In this document: one piece after another, positions 7,259-17,315 of the stretch
Position numbering within the stretch: position 1 is the first letter of the stretch
Layout of the letters: every line of letters begins with the position of its first letter
DNA from: Clostridia bacterium
GTDB lineage: Bacteria > Bacillota > Clostridia > RUG12999
Direction of reading: 5' to 3'
NCBI GenBank assembly: GCA_045580815.1
Contig: JAZNOL010000014.1
Coordinates: 1 to 57,244 of the forward strand
DNA length: 57,244 nt
Made by a program: the position numbers and the translations under genes
The notes under the pieces: model-generated
Databases searched by the model: none
The model's input: the letters and a program-made list of their open reading frames with translations, nothing else
Told to the model about the DNA's origin: nothing

Positions 7259-8926
7259 ATGAAAACAGACATTGAAATTGCAAGAGAATGCAAATTGCAG
7301 CCTATTGAAGAAATTGCTGCAAAAATCGGTATAAGCCGCGACGACCTTGAGTTTTACGGCAAATACAAAGCAAAACTCAGCGATGAGCTTATTGAAAAGC
7401 TTTCCTCAAACAAAGAGGGTAAACTCATTCTTGTTACAGCTATTAACCCAACACCTGCCGGCGAAGGAAAATCAACAGTTTCGGTTTCTCTTGCCCAGGC
7501 GATGAGCAAAATCGGCACAAAAACAATGCTTGCACTGCGTGAGCCTTCACTTGGTCCGGTTTTCGGTATTAAAGGCGGTGCCGCAGGTGGCGGTTATTCA
7601 CAGGTTGTTCCTATGGAAGATATTAATCTGCATTTCACAGGCGACCTGCACGCTATGACAGCGGCAAACAATCTGCTTTCTGCTCTTATAGACAACCATC
7701 TTCAGCAGGGCAACGAACTCGGAATCAATCCTAAAAGAATTGTATGGAAACGTTGTCTCGACATTAACGACAGAGCACTCCGCAGCGTTATTGTAGGTAT
7801 GGGTGCACCGGCTGACGGTGTTGTTCGTCAGGATGGTTTCCAGAATACTGTTGCTTCTGAAATTATGGCAATTATGTGTCTTGCAGAAAATATGGAAGAC
7901 CTTAAAAACAGACTTTCAAAAATTATTGTTGCATATACTTACGCAGGCAAACCGGTTACTGCTGCTGATTTAAAAGCTGTTGGTTCAATGGCTGTTCTGC
8001 TTAAAGACGCACTTAAACCTAACCTTGTTCAGACGCTGGAAAACACACCCTGTCTTATCCACGGCGGACCTTTTGCGAACATCGCTCACGGCTGTAACAG
8101 TGTACGTGCAACAAAAACAGCACTTCGTCTTGGTGATTACTGCGTAACCGAAGCAGGCTACGGTGCTGACCTTGGCGGTGAAAAATTCCTTGATATAAAA
8201 TGTGTTCTTGCAGGTCTTAAACCTCAGGCTGTTGTGGTTGTTGCAACAGTTCGTGCACTTAAATATAACGGCGGCGTTGCAAAAGATGCACTCACAACAG
8301 AAAATGTTGAGGCACTCAAAAAAGGTCTCCCCAACCTTGGCAAACACATCGAAAACATTCAGTCAACCGGAATCAATCCCATTGTTGCTCTTAACCGTTT
8401 TGCTTGTGATACTGATGCAGAGCTTAAAACAGTTATGGAATATTGTGAAAACTTAGGCGTAAGTGTAAGCCTTTGTGAAGGCTTTGCCAAAGGTGGCGAA
8501 GGTGCAATTGACCTTGCAAATAAGGTTGTGGCAGCAACAGAAAATTATGTGGATTACAAACCGTTCTACGACAAAAATGCACCTATTAAAGAAAAAATTG
8601 AAACAATTGTTAAAAAAGTTTACGGTGGTAGCGGCGTATCATACAGCGCAGCAGCAGAAAAAGCAATCAAAGAAATTGAAGCACTTGGTTTTGACAAAAT
8701 CCCTGTATGTATGGCAAAAACTCAGTATTCACTTTCCGATAACGCAACACTTCTGGGTCGCCCCGAAGGCTTTACCGTAAATGTTCGTGAAGTAAGAGTT
8801 TCAGCAGGTGCAGGCTTTGTTGTTGCAATAACGGGCGAAATTATGACAATGCCCGGTCTGCCCAAAGTTCCGGCGGCAAACAACATCGATATTGACGAAA
8901 ACGGCGTAATCGACGGACTGTTCTAA
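7259..8926 (+). CDS. fhs: Formate--tetrahydrofolate ligase
   Basis: [74 protein letters not shown]; GGAGG RBS. Confidence 0.98.
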
Positions 8927-8942
8927 AAATATTCATGATATG

Positions 8943-8977
8943 AAAAAGCGTGCACCGCTAAGCGGTGCACGCTTTTT
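8943..8977. terminator. Bidirectional intrinsic terminator between fhs and the nitrogenase-like operon
   Basis: Perfect 16-bp inverted repeat AAAAAGCGTGCACCGC-TAA-GCGGTGCACGCTTTTT. Confidence 0.92.
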
Positions 8978-8985
8978 GCTCAGTA

Positions 8986-10101
8986 TTAAAACCCACTTCC
9001 TGCTTCCTGCGATGGCTCAAAGATGGATTTTGCCTGGCTGTCTGTAAGTTCTATACCAAAAACTTCTTTATAATATTTTTTTGTTTCTGCTGTGATGTCG
9101 ATATCTTCAAACAACTGCGGATATGTGTTTTTTGCAAGCCACATTAAAGTTATGGGAGTATCTGCACCGGGCGTATAGCTTCTGTATATACCAAGCGGCA
9201 TTTTAAACACATTTTTGTTCTGCACAGCCTTTATACCGCTCCAGTCATATGCACCGACAGTATTTTCGTATAAATCTTTCGGAAAAGCCTCTGTAAAATT
9301 GCTTATAAATATTGTATCGGGATTCCAGACGTAAACCTGCTCAATATTAACGTGCTGTTCATTGTCTCCCGAAAGCTCTTTTGCAACATTTTTTGCACCG
9401 ATTGCATCAGCCCACCAATCACCGAAAAAGTTGTCTCCGGCGGTGACAATCGCGCTGTCGTTATATTTGAACAAGAAAAATACTTCTGCTTTTTCTTCGT
9501 CAGAAAGATTTTTAACACGTTCTTGTATCATATTGTACACATTGTTGCTATACTCTGCAACAGTATCTGCTTTGCTGTTTTCGGGAAACATCTGATTAAG
9601 AAGTGAAATCCAGTTATTTAAGGTTTCTATACAATTATACTCCCATTTGTTAACCGATACGGCAACAGCATTAAATCCGGCGTTCTTAAGCTGTTCTCCC
9701 TGTTTGGGCTTTGATGCACTGTAAATAACCACATCGGGATTTAATTTCATAAGCTCTTCGGTGTTAAGCTCTCCGCCGGCAAGAAAACCGGTGGAAGCAT
9801 TTAAAATTTCGGGATACAGTTTTGAAAGCAGGCTGTTTTTTGCAGCATTCATACTTCCGGGAGCCATTGCAACAATTTTTTCTCCACTATCAAAAAAGGT
9901 TGCTATAACCGATGGAAGCGGCAATATGTCGCAAACAGCAATACGCTCGATTTTTGCCGGAAGTACAACTTCGTTGTCAAGATGGTCAATAACAGTAATT
10001 GTATCGCCTAAAACCTGTTTTTCTGCCGGTGAACACGCAGAAAGTGTCAATATTAATACCACAGCTAAAATAAGTGATAATTTTCTAAAAATTTTTTTCA
10101 T
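8986..10101 (-). CDS. ABC transporter substrate-binding lipoprotein, helical-backbone (BtuF/FhuD/FepB-like) class
   Basis: Signal peptide with lipobox LSAC; ITVIDHLDNEV.LP..IERI, NTEELMKLNPDVVI, VNIEQV..WNPD.IFI, W..IKAVQN..V; AGGAGG RBS; last gene of the operon. Confidence 0.88.
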   Translation of the reverse strand: MKKIFRKLSLILAVVLILTLSACSPAEKQVLGDTITVIDHLDNEVVLPAKIERIAVCDILPLPSVIATFFDSGEKIVAMAPGSMNAAKNSLLSKLYPEILNASTGFLAGGELNTEELMKLNPDVVIYSASKPKQGEQLKNAGFNAVAVSVNKWEYNCIETLNNWISLLNQMFPENSKADTVAEYSNNVYNMIQERVKNLSDEEKAEVFFLFKYNDSAIVTAGDNFFGDWWADAIGAKNVAKELSGDNEQHVNIEQVYVWNPDTIFISNFTEAFPKDLYENTVGAYDWSGIKAVQNKNVFKMPLGIYRSYTPGADTPITLMWLAKNTYPQLFEDIDITAETKKYYKEVFGIELTDSQAKSIFEPSQEAGSGF

Positions 10102-10112
10102 TCTTATCCTCC

Positions 10113-11240
10113 TTAAATTTCCGTTTCAAGCAGATTAGAAATATTTTCCCGATACATTCTTCCGGAAAATGCTTCGTGGGGAAAATCATAAAATTTTGCA
10201 GATGGGGGGCATATTTTTTCAAAAAGCGGGTCTGCCGCAACAATCGATGCATTTTTTAAAATATTTTTGATATGCTCCTCGTCTTTCATGATTATGCACC
10301 CAAAATTTTTAAAATCCGCATCTGTATCGGGCGGGCATACAACAGTAGGTGTTACGCCGTATTTCTCTTTTATTGCTTTTGCAAGTGATAAGCCTGTAAC
10401 AGCCTCGGAAACAATAAAAATACCGCTGTCGGTGTTGGTATTTCTAATGCATTTGTTCTCCCCTGTTTCTCCGCATTGTTTTATAATATTTATAAACTTT
10501 TCTTCAAAGAATTTTTTTACAGGCAATGCAACAACATACGGTGTGCCATATATCCTGTTTAAATATTTTGCCGCTGCATATCCGCAGGATGAAACAACAA
10601 GATTAACATGTGCCGATGATGCATTTTGAATTTCGTCAAGATTTCCGCCTATACCGAAACGTGATACAACCTCGATGTCATATTTATAAAGCAAATCTTC
10701 TAACCCATTACAATATCCGGTTAACGAAAAATCAAGAGGTGTTGTTCCTATAATATTAACCGACAAATTTTTAGTTTTTTCTTTTTTCTCCGTAACAAAC
10801 CGTTTTGCAATTGCTTCAAACGCCATTGACGCACCGCTTATATAACTGTGCATTCCATTTGTAGAAAAACCAAAACACGGTATATCCGTCATATTTTCAA
10901 TGATTTTAGCAACCGCTTTAAGGTCTGTTCCTGTAATCATAGGAAGCGGTGTTCCGGCAATAGCTATAAATTTGGGACTCAGGCTTTGAGCTGTGCTTAC
11001 AATATCATTAATAAGTTTTTCGTCATCGCCCATAATCATATCCATTTCGGATATTGCTGATATAAAAACAAGACTGTCAAAATCATACCAGCGCGGTTCG
11101 TCGTGGGTATTATAAGTGGAATTGCACCCGGAAGCATCATCAATAACCGTCATTCCGCCCATTTCAAAAAGAGCTGAGGCAACACCTGAAACATCGGCTG
11201 TATATGTTGAAATAAAAGATGAAGCCTGATTTACAGACAT
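10113..11240 (-). CDS. Nitrogenase component-1-like oxidoreductase subunit (NifK/BchB/CfbD superfamily), divergent
   Basis: DASGC, SAISEMDMIMGDDEKL, SPKFIAIAGTP...GTDL and FSTNG match the oxidored_nitro fold layout; 375 aa; start overlaps the upstream gene. Confidence 0.8.
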   Translation of the reverse strand: MSVNQASSFISTYTADVSGVASALFEMGGMTVIDDASGCNSTYNTHDEPRWYDFDSLVFISAISEMDMIMGDDEKLINDIVSTAQSLSPKFIAIAGTPLPMITGTDLKAVAKIIENMTDIPCFGFSTNGMHSYISGASMAFEAIAKRFVTEKKEKTKNLSVNIIGTTPLDFSLTGYCNGLEDLLYKYDIEVVSRFGIGGNLDEIQNASSAHVNLVVSSCGYAAAKYLNRIYGTPYVVALPVKKFFEEKFINIIKQCGETGENKCIRNTNTDSGIFIVSEAVTGLSLAKAIKEKYGVTPTVVCPPDTDADFKNFGCIIMKDEEHIKNILKNASIVAADPLFEKICPPSAKFYDFPHEAFSGRMYRENISNLLETEI

Positions 11241-12571
11241 GACTCACACCCCAATCCTTTTACCTGAATAAGTTTTTGCGTTTCCTTTTCTGTCAAAAAT
11301 GCGTCTTCAATCTCACTGCAAAGACGGACTATACCGTCAAAGCCCCAATGACCGCCGCCTTCAACGATATTTACAAAATTGCGACTTCCCGTAAAATACG
11401 CCGCTTTTTGACCTATACATACAATTTTGTCGTTAAATTTTCTTGGCAGAACACGCATTGTAGGATGAACTGTCGGATACACTTCCAAATCAGGTTTAAT
11501 CAGTTTTAATTTTTCAAACGCCGGTTTATCTTCGGCTGTAACGCTGTCTGCATACACACGCACAACGTTAACTGCATTTTCCGAAAACAGAAGAGCCAGC
11601 TCGAAAGGGCGTGAAACTGCTGTATAATCAATTGCAACAGGAACATTACCTATTACAGCTTTCATTTTTTCGATGGCATTTTGTGCGTTTTTTTGCAAAT
11701 CTTCAATATCAAGCACTTCCGCTGTTCCAAGAGTTTCAACAAGCATTTTTATATGATTTTTTATTGTTTCAAAGTTGAAACTGCACGGAATATACAAATG
11801 CTTTTGCCCAAATTTTTCAGCAAGCTCGTCTCCGGCACATTTTGCCGCCGGATAATAGGTTATATTTAAAGCAGACGAAGCCATTGACTGATATTCATTG
11901 TATGTTTTACAGTTTGTAATTTCTTTAACATTAAAACCGCTTGATTTGAGAATTTCAATAAGCTCACTTGATTCATCGGTGGAAAAATCGTTACCTATAA
12001 TATTAACTGATTTAAAATCTGTCTGCGTGGGTTTTAACAGCGAATAAAGCTGTTTTCTCATTATCTGGTCAGGAGTAAGTCCGCTTTTTCGCATAATGGG
12101 ATTCATGTAGCAATCAGTAAAATCTATATCAGGAAAATTGGTTTTCAATGTTTTAAAAACATAATCCATATCACAACCCATAAAGTGGTGAATACAGCTT
12201 GTATACAGCAAAATCGCAGCTGGTTTATACGGCAATTCGGATAAAATTTTTGAAACTCCGTCAATAATAAGAGTTTCCATACTTCCGTCAAGAACATTGT
12301 GCTCTTTGATTTCTATTGTAGAAAACCGCCCTGATGCACCCATTTCTGCCGCTGTCAGCACAACGCCACGCAAACAGCCTGCTGCACATACAAAAATCTG
12401 ATGCGCCCCCGGAATAAGCATTCCGGTGTGAACAATGTTCCACGTTCCCCTTGCCGGAGCACCGTATTCAAGAGTGCTTTCAAAAAGTTTTGATGAATCG
12501 GCATCTTTGATTTTTTTACATATTTCCGGCATGATTTCGGTTTTATTGTCAGGTCTGATTTGTTTAAGCAT
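11231..12571 (-). CDS. Nitrogenase component-1-like oxidoreductase subunit (NifD/NifE/BchN superfamily), divergent
   Basis: VCAAGC (C62/C66), LYTSCI (C126), VNIIG and LNITYYP..KCAG..L..KFG..H; adjacent to the NifH-like gene. Confidence 0.82.
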   Translation of the reverse strand: MLKQIRPDNKTEIMPEICKKIKDADSSKLFESTLEYGAPARGTWNIVHTGMLIPGAHQIFVCAAGCLRGVVLTAAEMGASGRFSTIEIKEHNVLDGSMETLIIDGVSKILSELPYKPAAILLYTSCIHHFMGCDMDYVFKTLKTNFPDIDFTDCYMNPIMRKSGLTPDQIMRKQLYSLLKPTQTDFKSVNIIGNDFSTDESSELIEILKSSGFNVKEITNCKTYNEYQSMASSALNITYYPAAKCAGDELAEKFGQKHLYIPCSFNFETIKNHIKMLVETLGTAEVLDIEDLQKNAQNAIEKMKAVIGNVPVAIDYTAVSRPFELALLFSENAVNVVRVYADSVTAEDKPAFEKLKLIKPDLEVYPTVHPTMRVLPRKFNDKIVCIGQKAAYFTGSRNFVNIVEGGGHWGFDGIVRLCSEIEDAFLTEKETQKLIQVKGLGCESCL

Positions 12572-13331
12572 CTGATACCTCCTTAAACTGAGCCATCATA
12601 GCATCAGCAAGTTTTTCGTATTCTTTTGCCATTTCACTTTCAGGAAACGCTTCAATTACAGTTTTACCAAGCTCTTCTGCATCAAGAACGATTTCGCTTC
12701 TATTTAAACTGCCAACTATTTTGGTTTCAAGGTCATCGGCAAGCTCGGCAACCTTTTCTTCTTCATTTTTTACGTTACGTCTGTTTAAAATTATACCGCC
12801 AAGACGGGCATATCCCCTGCCTTTAAAATTCTGCGTTGCCATACCGATATTTGCCGCCGCATGAATCGACATATTCTCTCCGCTTGTAATTACGAAAACC
12901 TTTTCGGCATATCCGGGACGCATAGGCATTGTAAATCCGCCGCACACAACATCGCCCAGCACATCATAAAATACTATATCGGGTTTGTAGACCTCAAAAG
13001 CACCTTTTTCTTCGAGCTTTTCAAGGGATGCTATTATCCCTCTGCCTGCACAGCCCATGCCTGGTGCAGGTCCTCCTGCCTCAACGCACAGCACACCCCC
13101 AAAGCCTTTTATCACCATGTCATCAAGGGTGAAATTATTTCCTTTTTCACGGATAAGGTCAAGCACAGTAGAAACTTCTTTTTTCCCGCGAAGTAAAACC
13201 GTTGAATCTGCTTTCGGGTCACAGCCTATCTGCATAACGGTAAGCCCTTTTTTTGCAAGCGATGCTGATATATTTGAAACTGTGGTAGATTTCCCTATAC
13301 CGCCTTTTCCGTAAATTGCCGCTTTTATCAT
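12564..13331 (-). CDS. NifH/BchL/CfbC-like Fe protein (nitrogenase-reductase-like ATPase)
   Basis: GKGGIGKST P-loop, QIGCDPKAD, EAGGPAPGMGCAGRG (C94) and YDVLGDVVCGGF (C130). At 255 aa it lacks the C-terminal tail of canonical NifH. Confidence 0.95.
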   Translation of the reverse strand: MIKAAIYGKGGIGKSTTVSNISASLAKKGLTVMQIGCDPKADSTVLLRGKKEVSTVLDLIREKGNNFTLDDMVIKGFGGVLCVEAGGPAPGMGCAGRGIIASLEKLEEKGAFEVYKPDIVFYDVLGDVVCGGFTMPMRPGYAEKVFVITSGENMSIHAAANIGMATQNFKGRGYARLGGIILNRRNVKNEEEKVAELADDLETKIVGSLNRSEIVLDAEELGKTVIEAFPESEMAKEYEKLADAMMAQFKEVSDA

Positions 13332-14386
13332 ATTTTTGTTTCTCCTTTATAAAAATCTCCTCTGCCTATAACGGCTTCATATCCTATTTCTTTCAATTTT
13401 TCTTCAAAATCCTTTTTATGATTAACTGTTTGACCGGTTGTTCCCACTTTGTTGTCATAAAGCATATATTTTGCTTTTACCTCCTGCGGAGATAAGTTGA
13501 GCATTATTACGTTTGCACCGGCAAGGATTCCTTTTATACGTCCGTCTTTTTCTGCTGTTCCGAGAGCTGTTGTTGACGGAAGTAAAACTGCCGGAAGCAT
13601 TATTCTTGTAAGTGCAAGTAAAAATAATGTCAATGTTACATCTCCGGCAGATTCTTTTGCAAATGGTGTATCTTTGTGAGGAATAAACGGACCTATCCCC
13701 ACCATGTGTGGCTTAAAATCACCCAGAAACATCATATCTTCAGCCAGATTTTCAACTGTCTGATAAGGCGAGCCTACCATAAACCCTGCACCAACCTGAA
13801 AGCCTATATTTTTCAGATTAAAGAGACACTCTTTTCGTGTAGCAGGAGACATCTTTTCGGGATGCAGTTTTGCATAATGGTCACCGTTTGCCGTTTCATG
13901 GCGAAGCAGGTATCTGTCTGCACCGGCATCGAAATATTTTTTATATGTTTCTTTTGTTTTTTCGCCTAAAGACAACGTAACCGCACAATCGGGATATTTC
14001 TTTTTTAGTGTTTTAATAATATCACACATGATTTCGTCGGTATAATGCAAATCTTCGCCGCCTTGCAGCACAAAAGTGCGAAACCCAAGCACATACCCTT
14101 CATCAGCGCACATTAAAATATCTTCTTTTGAAAGTCGATATCTGGCGGCGTTTTTGTTGCCGCAACGTATGCCGCAATAATAACAGTCATTTTTGCAGTA
14201 ATTTGATATTTCTATAAGACCGCGCATAAAAATTTTGCTGCCGTATATTTTCTTTACAATTTCGGTTGCAAGAGATATTGCATAATTGCAATCGTCTTCT
14301 GTATAACTGCCTATAAGTGTTATCCATTCCTGCTTTGAAAGTGTTTTTTCTTTATTCAGTTTATCAATTAAAAATTTATTGTTCAC
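13328..14386 (-). CDS. hydE: HydE-like radical SAM protein (BioB/HydE/PylB superfamily)
   Basis: CKNDCYYC (C64/68/71), RYLLRHETAN, GIGPFIPH.DTP, LPSTTAL, GANVIM and Y.LYDNK are HydE-family signatures; GTG start. Confidence 0.88.
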   Translation of the reverse strand: MNNKFLIDKLNKEKTLSKQEWITLIGSYTEDDCNYAISLATEIVKKIYGSKIFMRGLIEISNYCKNDCYYCGIRCGNKNAARYRLSKEDILMCADEGYVLGFRTFVLQGGEDLHYTDEIMCDIIKTLKKKYPDCAVTLSLGEKTKETYKKYFDAGADRYLLRHETANGDHYAKLHPEKMSPATRKECLFNLKNIGFQVGAGFMVGSPYQTVENLAEDMMFLGDFKPHMVGIGPFIPHKDTPFAKESAGDVTLTLFLLALTRIMLPAVLLPSTTALGTAEKDGRIKGILAGANVIMLNLSPQEVKAKYMLYDNKVGTTGQTVNHKKDFEEKLKEIGYEAVIGRGDFYKGETKI

Positions 14387-14401: not shown

Positions 14402-15466
14402 TTACTGTTCGTCCTCATAAATAGTTTTTACGTTAATGCCTTTCATTGACGAGAGCTTCAGCTCCATGCCCTTTAACTTTGACTGCGGGCCGTCAAGTGT
14501 AAGGTTTATTACTCTGATGTCATATTTTTTGTACGGCATACCCATTCTGCCGACAATATATTTTCCGTATTCATGAATACATTTGTTTACTTCATCAACC
14601 GATGCATCATTTTTAACGGTTACCGACATAACCGCCAACTTATTTCCGAACTCAGAAATTTTCAGCTTCGCTGTATTTTCGGAAGATATTTCAACGGGCA
14701 CAATATCATGTAAAGCATTTTTTTCTGTTTCAACCGTGCCGATGACGGTTTTTACCCCAAACGCCGCTTCAATATTCTTTTCTGTAACAACCTCGGCAGT
14801 ATTTCCAAACAATACTCCCCCATGTTTGCTTATAAGCAACGATTTGTTTGCTCTTCGCAGTGCATGAGCCGGATAATGTGTATTAAAAATACAGCAAACG
14901 CCTGATTGTGCCAACTGAGATATTGTATCAAGCACAATTATCTGATTTTTAAAATCAAGGTTTGATTCAGGCTCGTCCAGAATAAGAATCTGCGGATTTG
15001 AAACAAGTGCTCGTGCAATCAGCACCATCTGTAACTGTCCGCCGCTTATTTCGTTACACTGTTTTTCGGCAATGCTTTCTATATTAAGTCTTTTCATAAC
15101 CTCAAACGCATCAGCAACATCTTTTGATGACGGTGTTTCAAAAAAATTCAAGCTTCCGCTTTTTCCAAGAAGTATCATTTCCCGAACGGTCAGCGATGAT
15201 GTGCTCTGTTTTGCCTGTGGAACGTAAGAAACAATGTTCCACAGCTGTTTCGGGGAAAGATTTTTTATGTTTTTTCCGCCGATTATGCTTTCTCCGCTAC
15301 GCCATTTCAAAAATCCCATTATGCATTTAAGAAGTGTTGTTTTTCCTACACCGTTTGGCCCGAGAATAGCAATAACATCCCCTTTTTGTGCATCAAAATT
15401 TATATTTTCCAATATGTTATTCTGTTTCGCATATCCGAAACAACCATTTTTAACCGACAATATCAC
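14402..15466 (-). CDS. FepC/BtuD-type ABC ATPase fused to a C-terminal TM1266-like (iron-only hydrogenase system regulator, ACT-like) domain
   Basis: GPNGVGKTT, ISGGQ, LILDEP and NTH; C-terminal EVNKCIHEYGKYIVGRMGMPY...LTLDGP...GINVKT resembles TM1266. The real start is GTG 15466 in a GTGA overlap with the permease stop; the ORF-track extension to 15739 is spurious. Confidence 0.85.
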   Translation of the reverse strand: MILSVKNGCFGYAKQNNILENINFDAQKGDVIAILGPNGVGKTTLLKCIMGFLKWRSGESIIGGKNIKNLSPKQLWNIVSYVPQAKQSTSSLTVREMILLGKSGSLNFFETPSSKDVADAFEVMKRLNIESIAEKQCNEISGGQLQMVLIARALVSNPQILILDEPESNLDFKNQIIVLDTISQLAQSGVCCIFNTHYPAHALRRANKSLLISKHGGVLFGNTAEVVTEKNIEAAFGVKTVIGTVETEKNALHDIVPVEISSENTAKLKISEFGNKLAVMSVTVKNDASVDEVNKCIHEYGKYIVGRMGMPYKKYDIRVINLTLDGPQSKLKGMELKLSSMKGINVKTIYEDEQ

Positions 15467-16500
15467 AGCTGCCACCCCTTTCCTCTGCGAAGAAGGAATA
15501 TGAAAAACGGTGCGCCTATTATGGCTGTCAGCACAGAAATTGGAATTTCTGATACAGAAGCCGACCTTGCAACCGTGTCTGTAAGCATCATAAATGCCGC
15601 ACCGAGACTTATTGATGCCGGCACAATAGAAAGATGGTTTGCACCAAATTTCATGCGGCATATATGAGGAATTATAAGCCCTACCCATCCAACCTGACCG
15701 CACATTGCAATGCTTGCGGCGGTAACAGCAGTTGAACAAATAACGGTTACTATCCGTGTGAGTTTTAAATTGACACCTGTTGACTGAGCCTCTTCATCTG
15801 AAAGCACAAGAATATTAAGTCGCCACCTGATTATATATAATACTAAAACACCAATGGCAATTACGGTTATTCCGGGTATGATGGAAGAAAATCCGGCACC
15901 GTTTAAACTTCCCATAAGAAAATATGTTATTGCCGGAAGCTGCGTTTCGGAATCGGCAAGAAATTTTACCAACGAAACAAGAGCTGAAAACAGGGAGCTT
16001 ATCATTATACCGGACAAAACCACGCTACTCATTCCCCTACCAAGTTTTGAACCTGAAAACCAGGTGAGAGCAACAGCACCAAGTCCAAAAGCAAAGGCAC
16101 AGATATGGATTCCAAGTGTGTTAAATCCAAGAAGAATTCCAAGTGCCGCACCAAAGCTTGCTCCACCCGCCGCACCGAGGGTATCGGGCGTTGCAAGAGG
16201 ATTGGCAAAAAGGCTCTGATATGCACAACCGCTGACAGAAAGACCCGCCCCTACAAATGCCGCAAGAAGAATGCGCGGAAGACGTATTGTGTTTATTATT
16301 GTTGTGATTTGTGCAGGAAGCCCGGAATTTGCGTTAAAAAGCTCCGCAAGTGCCTTAAAAGTGTCAGGCAGGGAAATTATCATTCTTCCGCTGCAAAGAG
16401 CAATAATCGCTGCAAAAACCGGAATAATCAGTAATAATATTTTTGCTTTAACGGATAATCCGCCGGGTGCTGTTTTCTTTAAAGATTTACTTCTGTTCAT
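15463..16500 (-). CDS. FecCD/BtuC-family ABC permease
   Basis: IRLPRILLA..VGAGLSVSG..YQ.LF.NPLA.PD.LG...GA, EEAQSTGVN, GQVGWVGLIIPHI.R, EIPISVLTAIIGAPFF. Confidence 0.95.
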   Translation of the reverse strand: MNRSKSLKKTAPGGLSVKAKILLLIIPVFAAIIALCSGRMIISLPDTFKALAELFNANSGLPAQITTIINTIRLPRILLAAFVGAGLSVSGCAYQSLFANPLATPDTLGAAGGASFGAALGILLGFNTLGIHICAFAFGLGAVALTWFSGSKLGRGMSSVVLSGIMISSLFSALVSLVKFLADSETQLPAITYFLMGSLNGAGFSSIIPGITVIAIGVLVLYIIRWRLNILVLSDEEAQSTGVNLKLTRIVTVICSTAVTAASIAMCGQVGWVGLIIPHICRMKFGANHLSIVPASISLGAAFMMLTDTVARSASVSEIPISVLTAIIGAPFFIFLLRRGKGWQL

Positions 16501-16514
16501 TTTAGTTTCCTTTC

Positions 16515-16550
16515 AAAAACAAAAAGCTGTGCTTCTTTCGAAAGCACAGC
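16515..16550 (-). terminator. Intrinsic terminator (attenuator) in the 5' leader of the nitrogenase-like operon
   Basis: GCUGUGCUU-loop-AAGCACAGC followed by UUUUUGUUUUU, just before the AAAGGA RBS of the first gene and downstream of the promoter. Confidence 0.8.
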
Positions 16551-16673
16551 CTGCATATGCATAACAAACAGATTTAACCTAAAAAGGCTAAATCAACTGT
16601 AAACAAAGGTCATCGGCTTTCATCTCAAAACGTATTTTTGATGTCAGGGTCATAACATTTAGTTTGTATTTAT

Positions 16674-16702
16674 ATTATATATTAAATTCAAAGGTTTGTC
16701 AA
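16674..16702 (-). promoter_or_regulatory. Consensus sigmaA promoter of the nitrogenase-like operon
   Basis: Exact TTGACA-17 nt-TATAAT, giving a leader of about 165 nt. Confidence 0.88.
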
Positions 16703-16709
16703 TAATTTA

Positions 16710-17315
16710 TCAAAAATTATTATATAAAATTTTTAAAGCGTTTGATGCAATAAGCGGTTTTGCGTGTTCGGCAAGATAAGATGCAAAAAGCTCTGCGTGC
16801 CTTATTTTTTTGCCATATTCACAAACCGAAGCATTAAATTTTTTTGTGTATCCCCTAAGTGCATTAGGAACATTTATAACAAGACGGTATTCTCCGTTTG
16901 TTTTATAAAGGCTGTTATTTCCGTCAAAAAGAAGACAGAAATACAGATTATTTTTTGCAAAACGGCATACATTGTCAAAGTTTTCAAACGCAAAAATTAT
17001 TACTGCCTGGTTTTCTTCGGTTTGCTCCGTTTTTGGTTTGTATTTATATCGCTTAACGCCGGAAGAAGTTTTTTCGCTTTTTGTTATATAAACAACCGTG
17101 CTTGACATATCCTTTTGCATTACCTCAATAGTGAGGCGGCAGTTTTCAAAGGTTATACCTGTTTCTTTTGATGCAAGTTTTATAAGATTCCAGAACATTT
17201 CGTTTGACTTAGGGTTTTCGGGGCTGAAATTCTGAAATTTAATATTTAATTTTAACATATCCTGCGATGTAAGGGTTATCTTGACAGCGCTGTCTGAAAT
17301 TTTTTCGATTTTCAT
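16710..17315 (-). CDS. mecA: MecA-family ClpC adaptor protein
   Basis: MKIEKISD..VKITLT..DM N-terminus, IFAFENFD.V and S.LYK..GEY.L; start ATG 17315 after GGAG. Confidence 0.8.
   Translation of the reverse strand: MKIEKISDSAVKITLTSQDMLKLNIKFQNFSPENPKSNEMFWNLIKLASKETGITFENCRLTIEVMQKDMSSTVVYITKSEKTSSGVKRYKYKPKTEQTEENQAVIIFAFENFDNVCRFAKNNLYFCLLFDGNNSLYKTNGEYRLVINVPNALRGYTKKFNASVCEYGKKIRHAELFASYLAEHAKPLIASNALKILYNNF

Follow-up and report, generated by a model that had tools for sequence, protein, structure and literature searches.

The gene considered here lies on the minus strand at positions 14402–15466 of a 57,244-nucleotide stretch of DNA (contig JAZNOL010000014.1 of assembly GCA_045580815.1, from a Clostridia bacterium), referred to below as the window. 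It encodes a protein of 354 amino acids (aa) in which an ATP-binding cassette (ABC) ATPase is followed by a TM1266-like domain. The gene is part of an operon that runs, in order, from a leader RNA through a permease, the ATPase::TM1266 fusion, HydE and three nitrogenase-like components (NifH-like, NifD-like and NifK-like) to a binding protein. A sequence-only reading of the window had proposed such a fusion at these coordinates. The coordinates are correct, the strand being minus: translation gives an unbroken frame of 354 codons, from a GTG start that overlaps the stop of the permease gene as GTGA, to a TAA stop. An AlphaFold2 model of the full-length protein has a pLDDT of 88.8 and a pTM of 0.85.

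Residues 1–260 (14687–15466, minus strand) comprise a complete ABC nucleotide-binding domain (residues 1–236) and a C-terminal beta-hairpin (238–260). Walker A (GPNGVGKT), Q84, the signature SGGQ (141–144), Walker B (ILILDE, 160–165), the D-loop SNLD and H197 are invariant or almost so in an alignment of 120 homologues, and Pfam ABC_tran (PF00005) matches residues 19–166 (E = 3.5e-32). The best Foldseek matches are ATPases of type II importers, namely 2nq2 (HI1470), BhuV, HmuV and BtuD, with target TM-scores of 0.83–0.89 and root-mean-square deviations (rmsd) of 2.3–2.9 Å for 2nq2, 5b58, 4g1u and 4fi3. The domain had been called a normal one of FepC/BtuD type, and motifs, profile and fold agree with that description. 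On sequence and model the protein is the ATPase subunit of a type II (BtuCD/MolBC-class) ABC importer, for which ATP-driven import is predicted. No equivalog model for a particular substrate was reached: the ATPase scores 147 bits on FecE (cut-off 375) and 111 on BtuD (cut-off 281). The linker that follows (14 residues, 261–274; 14645–14686, minus strand) varies in length and sequence, falls in gap-rich, unconserved columns of the alignment and has no secondary structure in the AlphaFold2 model.

The TM1266-like domain occupies residues 275–350 (14417–14644, minus strand); the tail quoted in the sequence-only reading (LAVMSVTV...GRMGMPY...INVKT) corresponds to residues 277–348. Its modelled secondary structure is beta-alpha-beta-beta-alpha-beta over some 80 aa. 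Pfam PF21699 (TM1266-like) matches residues 276–348 with E = 5.3e-19 (68.4 bits; gathering score 27), and the tail alone reaches 81.5 bits on NCBIfam TIGR03959 (hyd_TM1266), where the cut-off is 60.8. The only solved structure related to it by sequence is that of TM1266 itself (PDB 2nzc), found with E = 1.6e-4 from the single sequence and 1.2e-16 from a profile. When modelled on its own (pLDDT 91.4), the tail superposes on 2nzc with TM-scores of 0.87–0.94 and an rmsd of 1.0–1.3 Å over 79–81 columns. Next in rank come the C-terminal domains of NikR (TM-score 0.71–0.80) and then ACT domains, those of IlvN and RelA-type proteins giving 0.66–0.73; no Pfam ACT match was found on the 354-aa protein. 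The tail had been taken for a TM1266-like domain of the ACT/NikR-C kind: the scores on PF21699 and TIGR03959, together with the sequence and fold matches to 2nzc, make that description correct, although the resemblance to ACT is one of fold and not of Pfam profile. Judged by curated cut-offs, by the 2nzc fold and by the company of hydrogenase (hyd) maturases, the tail is thus an ACT/NikR-C-like member of the TM1266 family; it departs from the family in that it is not a free-standing protein of about 80 aa.

Conservation within the tail is concentrated on strand beta2 and helix alpha1, the loop between beta1 and alpha1 being unconserved. Fused and free copies have in common N294, H297, the run G306-R307-M308-G309-M310-P311-Y312, D325 and K347. 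Among 120 fused homologues, which are about 50% identical overall, R307, P311 and K347 do not vary, and each of M308, G309, M310, Y312, N294 and D325 is kept in at least 90%; the same 120-sequence alignment contains no conserved Cys in this domain.

The architecture is widespread. In a search of 5.8 billion proteins the best 120 protein clusters, 49–58% identical to the window ATPase, all carry both PF00005 and PF21699. With one genome scanned per species, at least 590 species genomes encode relatives of the fusion; the best 80 of these were fetched as loci, and every one of them matches through residue ~350, with decay of the tail seen in none. Carriers include Oscillospiraceae, Lachnospiraceae, Peptococcaceae, Christensenellales, Mogibacterium, Intestinibacter bartlettii DSM 16795 and Agrilactobacillus yilanensis. 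In an even sample of the class Clostridia, the full fusion is present in 3 of 399 genomes. We considered whether a sequencing or assembly frameshift had merged two separate genes, one for an ABC ATPase and one for TM1266. The frame is continuous, the architecture recurs across many independent assemblies (all 120 clusters, all 80 loci), and in most relatives the free TM1266 gene lies ahead of the permease, not behind the ATPase: artificial joining is ruled out by this conservation across species, and we give it practically no chance.

In a tree of 174 TM1266 domains the fused copies group together, with 76 of 77 rows on one side of a well-supported branch (SH-aLRT 96). Since the fused domains are essentially one clade, the tree fits a single, old fusion that has since been maintained. 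The TM1266 family as a whole is small (1,629 clusters at 50% identity among 1.84 billion representatives), and its best-scoring members are almost all free-standing.

The other genes of the operon lie on the same (minus) strand. The permease (15463–16500; 345 aa) is of FecCD/BtuC type (Pfam FecCD, E = 1.3e-76). On the other side of the fusion, 15 nt away, lies HydE (13328–14386), a predicted radical-SAM [FeFe]-hydrogenase maturase that scores 542.8 bits on TIGR03956 against a cut-off of 254.6. Then come the three nitrogenase-like genes: a NifH-like ATP-dependent reductase component (12564–13331; Fer4_NifH, E = 1.9e-86), which stays under the equivalog cut-offs of NifH, CfbC and BchL; a very divergent NifD/E-like component-1 subunit of 446 aa (11231–12571; Oxidored_nitro, E = 1.8e-22), for which a sequence search returned no solved relative; and a NifK/N-like component-1 subunit of 375 aa (10113–11240; Oxidored_nitro, E = 4.3e-31), with weak matches in the PDB to NifD, NifE and BchB. 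The last gene encodes the putative lipoprotein substrate-binding protein of the importer (8986–10101; Peripla_BP_2, Pfam E = 3.4e-22). Its nearest solved structure is 4ovk, which has no named ligand, followed by HI_1472 and by binders of Ni and Fe chelates; these relatives after 4ovk bind molybdate/tungstate, Ni-(His)2 or Fe chelates, and all are of low similarity. HI_1472 and HI1470, the best fold match of the ATPase, are parts of the same Haemophilus influenzae transporter. The importer may belong to the small-solute subclass of type II systems rather than to those for siderophores, haem or B12. Just past the binding-protein gene there is a weak match to the Rfam family 'Thr_leader' (8869–8981, in plus-strand coordinates), which appears to be only the GC-rich hairpin and U-run of the operon's terminator.

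Permease and Peripla_BP_2 binding protein are encoded in the related loci too. Among the 70 loci that run past the ATPase, the nitrogenase-like (nfl) genes are present in 68 and HydE in 45: the constant partner of the fusion is the nitrogenase-like trio, and HydE is optional. A free TM1266 gene (tm) precedes the permease in 52 of 69 loci, and HydF follows the binding protein in 28 of 55. The most frequent form (19 loci) comprises tm, permease, ATPase::TM1266, hydE, nflH, nflD, nflK, binding protein and hydF, nine genes in all; the operon in the window is a reduced, seven-gene version of it.

Between a mecA-like gene and the permease, reading of the sequence identifies a promoter (TTGACA-17-TATAAT) and a leader RNA of about 165 nt (16504–16711, minus strand), which ends in an intrinsic terminator just before the ribosome-binding site of the permease. 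The conserved core of the leader is CCUGACAUC-GAAA...UUGAGAUG-GAAG, which may also be written CCUGACAUCGAAA-N-UUUGAGAUGGAAG; it contains a covarying 4-bp helix and is followed by a variable spacer and then by the terminator. Pairs seen in the helix are CAUC/GAUG, CGCC/GGCG, CGUC/GACG and CACC/GGUG; a regular-expression survey of the helix was overly strict, catching 24 of 134 leaders, and is indicative only. Both in the window sequence and in the alignment consensus, the terminator's 5' strand reads as able to pair with the 3' portion of the core. Iterative nhmmer searches recover this element at more than 40 related loci, where it immediately precedes the first gene of the operon, and, more weakly, before some tm-hydE-hydG operons; in this genome it occurs once. 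Searches of the window and of seven related loci gave no Rfam match for the leader, and a known riboswitch was rejected on that basis.

The genome also carries a free TM1266 gene. It is found on another contig (C37:4236–4481, locus L003), encodes 81 aa that score 116 bits on TIGR03959, and lies 23 nt after htpG and upstream of a gene for a small RelQ/YjbM-like alarmone synthetase. No leader RNA was detected before this gene on C37; free copy and leader are therefore separated in this genome. HydF, likewise apart from the operon, is encoded once (contig C80:7240–8442), beside a glutamate dehydrogenase gene on an 8.5-kb contig that ends about 90 bp away.

To place the free gene in context we used 80 loci whose TM1266 protein is 67–81% identical to this genome's free copy. 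Its surroundings are tm-hydE-hydG in 39 loci, tm-hydE in six, an importer/nitrogenase-like operon in about 11, and nflD'-nflK'-hypF-hypC-hypD-hypE-tm-nflH-nflD-nflK in five; hydF completes many of these TM1266-headed operons. The statement that TM1266 proteins normally stand alone beside hyd maturases thus holds. In the tree, free copies from hydG-type and from nitrogenase-like operons are intermixed, and so the same small gene heads either kind of operon.

The relation between HydG and the nitrogenase-like genes was also followed across whole genomes. The genome of the window, which is ~85% complete, encodes two [FeFe] hydrogenases, a single HydE (that of the operon) and a single HydF; no HydG was found in it, nor any HypCDEF or [NiFe] hydrogenase. 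Among 26 other genomes with the fused operon, 25 have an [FeFe] hydrogenase and 25 have HydE (single copy in 24), and four have HydG. These counts also bear on the idea that HydE is a spare, repurposed paralogue. It is rejected, given that HydE is single-copy in 24 of the 26 genomes and, in the present genome, is the sole copy and scores 543 bits on the equivalog model.

The association was quantified in the same 399 Clostridia genomes, evenly drawn, with a NifD-like orthologue defined by at least 37% identity. HydE is present in 256 of these genomes, 236 of which also have HydG. The NifD-like orthologue is found in 11, all of them with HydE and none with HydG. Of the HydE-bearing genomes, those with the NifD-like protein divide into 11 without and 0 with HydG, and those lacking it into nine without and 236 with HydG (Fisher's exact P = 2.7e-14, kinship not being corrected for). 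The 11 genomes span eight families, and one genus holds both states. The sequence-only reading had argued that the fusion links the transporter to the HydE pathway. HydE occurs in 45 of the 70 operons, is usually the only HydE of its genome, and the operon goes with the absence of HydG; a tie between importer and hydrogenase maturation is well supported.

Six of the 11 genomes with a NifD-like orthologue had no importer match in that search. Two of these were inspected, and in place of the importer their clusters contain a second nitrogenase-like set together with HypF, HypC, HypD and HypE. Importer-less clusters of HydG-less genomes (L099, 1574–12568; L100, 4378–14517; L120, 63–10684) have the order nflH'-nflD'-nflK'-hypF-hypC-hypD-hypE-(TM1266)-(nflH)-nflD-nflK, such that the Fe(CN)2CO machinery of the [NiFe] type is embedded between two nitrogenase-like sets; neither hypA nor hypB was seen within these three clusters. 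Conversely, no hyp genes lie within 10 kb in any of the 80 fused-importer loci. Since Hyp genes are found in the importer-less clusters and neither near the 80 fused loci nor in the present genome, the importer and the block of Hyp genes plus second trio look like alternatives, and one type may take up the product of the other.

Taken further, these distributions suggest a tentative scheme, which we consider rather unlikely. The NifH/D/K-like trio would replace HydG as the source of the Fe-CO-CN unit of the H-cluster, and would be fed by the importer in some Clostridia and by the second set with HypFCDE in others; the importer would take up the product of the HypFCDE type, and free and tethered TM1266 would act, with the leader RNA, as a protein-level sensor adjusting import to demand. 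If true, there would be a second route of H-cluster maturation that is independent of a tyrosine lyase. Two observations run counter to the HydG pattern: HydG and the operon coexist in four genomes, including those of Intestinibacter and Agrilactobacillus, and nine genomes have HydE and lack HydG without possessing either system. The apparent replacement of HydG is a pattern of gene distribution.

What, then, might the tail do? The explanation that we favor overall, and to which we give about an even chance, is by analogy: the TM1266 domain tethered to a type II importer ATPase would respond to a ligand and thereby gate import. A ligand-responsive module is suggested by the ACT/NikR-like fold, by the tethered position under the ATPase dimer and by the co-encoded free paralogue. 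A plausible mechanism is that the two tethered domains of an ATPase dimer, probably together with free TM1266 subunits, form a NikR-like tetramer (the 2nzc entry holds four chains), possibly a mixed tetramer consisting of two tethered and two free domains. This tetramer would bind a small cytoplasmic ligand tied to the supply of H-cluster precursor, probably at the patch formed by H297 and R307-M308-G309-M310-P311-Y312, and ligand binding would hold the nucleotide-binding domains apart or together, throttling import to demand in the manner of trans-inhibition in MetN, ModC and MalK. The tail had also been singled out as the best handle on the operon's substrate; this is overstated, in that the binding protein and the leader RNA are at least as good.

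Several observations count against a gating role. Free TM1266 also occurs in operons without any transporter, which implies that the core job of the domain is not transport control: a carrier or a chaperone is equally possible. The fusion is dispensable, to judge by otherwise similar operons with an unfused ATPase (L118, L146, L097 and L098), and among the few importer-type operons found independently of the ATPase roughly a quarter to 40% are unfused. The fused copy evolves faster than the free copy and has long branches in the tree. Finally, the protein has no Pfam NIL/C2, TOBE or MalK regulatory match at E ≤ 0.01, and no NIL, TOBE or MalK regulatory domain figures in the top 50 structural hits listed for its tail.

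The main rival is a module for hand-off, in which the tethered domain takes over the imported cargo or an iron-containing intermediate on the cytoplasmic side of the transporter, for delivery to HydE, HydF or the nitrogenase-like scaffold, the free protein doing the same job in classical hydE-hydG operons. We hold this to be possible though doubtful. Free TM1266 heads maturase operons that contain neither a transporter nor a DNA-binding protein, for which reason a role in maturation chemistry is as likely for it as one in regulation; the fusion gene and HydE are immediate neighbors; and an anionic or soft-metal ligand would fit the set of conserved Arg, Met, Tyr, His and Lys. The conserved set, however, lacks the Cys or His cluster of known iron and cluster carriers, an ACT-like fold of 80 aa is typical of sensors, and HydE is absent from 25 of the 70 operons that keep the fusion.

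Were the tail instead a metal sensor like NikR, it would bind Ni2+ or Fe2+ and shut the importer when the cell is metal-replete. The nickel-binding C-terminal domains of NikR are the best folds after 2nzc, the TM1266 profile aligns to NikR of Helicobacter pylori (E = 0.03) with H297 on the His ligand of the NikR helix, and distant relatives of the binding protein bind Ni-(His)2 or Fe chelates. In that alignment, however, the positions of the H-x-H ligands are taken by G309 and P311 and the Cys position is unconserved, so that three of the four ligands are absent, and the domain offers no conserved Cys elsewhere. A nickel site of the NikR type is rejected on this ground and direct sensing of Ni2+ is unlikely: as the alignment places it, the conserved patch sits where NikR binds nickel but differs from it in chemistry, and cannot be a NikR nickel site. 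Metal sensing as a whole we regard as improbable. Equally poor, in our estimate, is the prospect that the tail has no function that depends on a ligand, being a passive appendage for dimerization or stability or a neutral fusion of neighboring genes. In favor of it, some operons are unfused, most carriers keep the free copy, which could make the tethered one redundant, and the fused copies sit on long branches. A passive tail would nonetheless have been kept in at least 590 species at ~50% overall identity, with an invariant motif common to the fused and the free protein, a confidently modelled domain (pLDDT 91) and no decay in 80 loci.

Known systems help to locate the tail among related domains. 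TM1266 of Thermotoga maritima (2nzc) shares with it family, fold (rmsd 1.0 Å), the company of hyd maturases, the Arg-x-Gly-x-Pro strand and the His-bearing helix, but is free-standing and has the motif LRVGYPV, whereas the domain described here is tethered to an ABC ATPase and has GRMGMPY. MetN (with its C2, or NIL, domain), ModC and MalK also carry a small C-terminal domain after the nucleotide-binding domain of an importer, placed such that two copies would meet under the dimer. In these three ATPases the C-terminal regulatory domains mediate trans-inhibition, and the C2 domain of MetN is ferredoxin/ACT-like. The fold search matches MetN chains to both domains of the fusion, with a different relative orientation. 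These proteins differ from the fusion in that there is no sequence relation and no co-encoded free paralogue of the domain; MetNI, ModBC and MalFGK are, in addition, type I importers, and the fusion ATPase is of type II (FecCD/BtuCD class). To our knowledge, C-terminal regulatory domains on ABC ATPases have been described, but none from the TM1266 family and none on a type II (BtuCD-class) importer. The C-terminal domain of NikR is the best fold match outside the family, with a weak profile match, a patch at the high-affinity nickel site and one His kept; it differs in its H-x-H and Cys ligands, which are absent here, and in its ribbon-helix-helix domain, the place of which is taken by the ABC ATPase at the N-terminus. 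HI1470/71 (MolBC) with HI1472 (MolA), BhuUV-T and HmuUV have the closest solved ATPases (34% identity for the first, 26–27% for the others), none with an extra C-terminal domain. Identity to these systems is too low for substrate specificity to be transferred.

Part of this neighborhood has been noticed before. Dos Santos et al. 2012 (PMC3464626) reported, for Firmicutes, NifEN-like genes that follow NifH and an ABC ATPase, and NifHEN-like genes beside hydrogenase maturation proteins, for which they suggested a role in metallocluster assembly. Theirs is the gene neighborhood seen here, although the remark is short and mentions neither the TM1266 fusion nor the HydG pattern. According to a 2024 survey (PMC11216029), there must be an alternative route by which [FeFe] hydrogenases are matured. 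In a 2026 review of nitrogenase-like systems (PMC13474568) the word 'HydE' is absent, and function is assigned for only some clades of Group IV and for none in Group VI. Our literature search returned nothing on the ATPase::TM1266 fusion, on the function of TM1266 or on HydG versus nitrogenase-like genes. With no experimental function for any TM1266 member, the 'regulator' in the name of TIGR03959 is only a prediction.

The value of the fusion is that it provides a tractable entry into an undescribed operon, itself probably tied to H-cluster maturation and widespread in hundreds of gut and rumen Clostridia. It gives an experimental grip on TM1266, in the form of a soluble domain of 80 aa with a conserved pocket, whose state may be reported by the activity of the attached ATPase. 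The distribution of the operon, mostly in HydG-less genomes that have HydE and an [FeFe] hydrogenase, makes maturation without the full HydEFG set a testable question. A minor observation concerns annotation: some fusions of 360–370 aa (clusters P0024, P0031 and P0037) are named 'TM1266 family iron-only hydrogenase system putative regulator' by NCBI. Here the model of the small domain overrides the identity of the ABC ATPase, a systematic naming problem that hides transporter ATPases.

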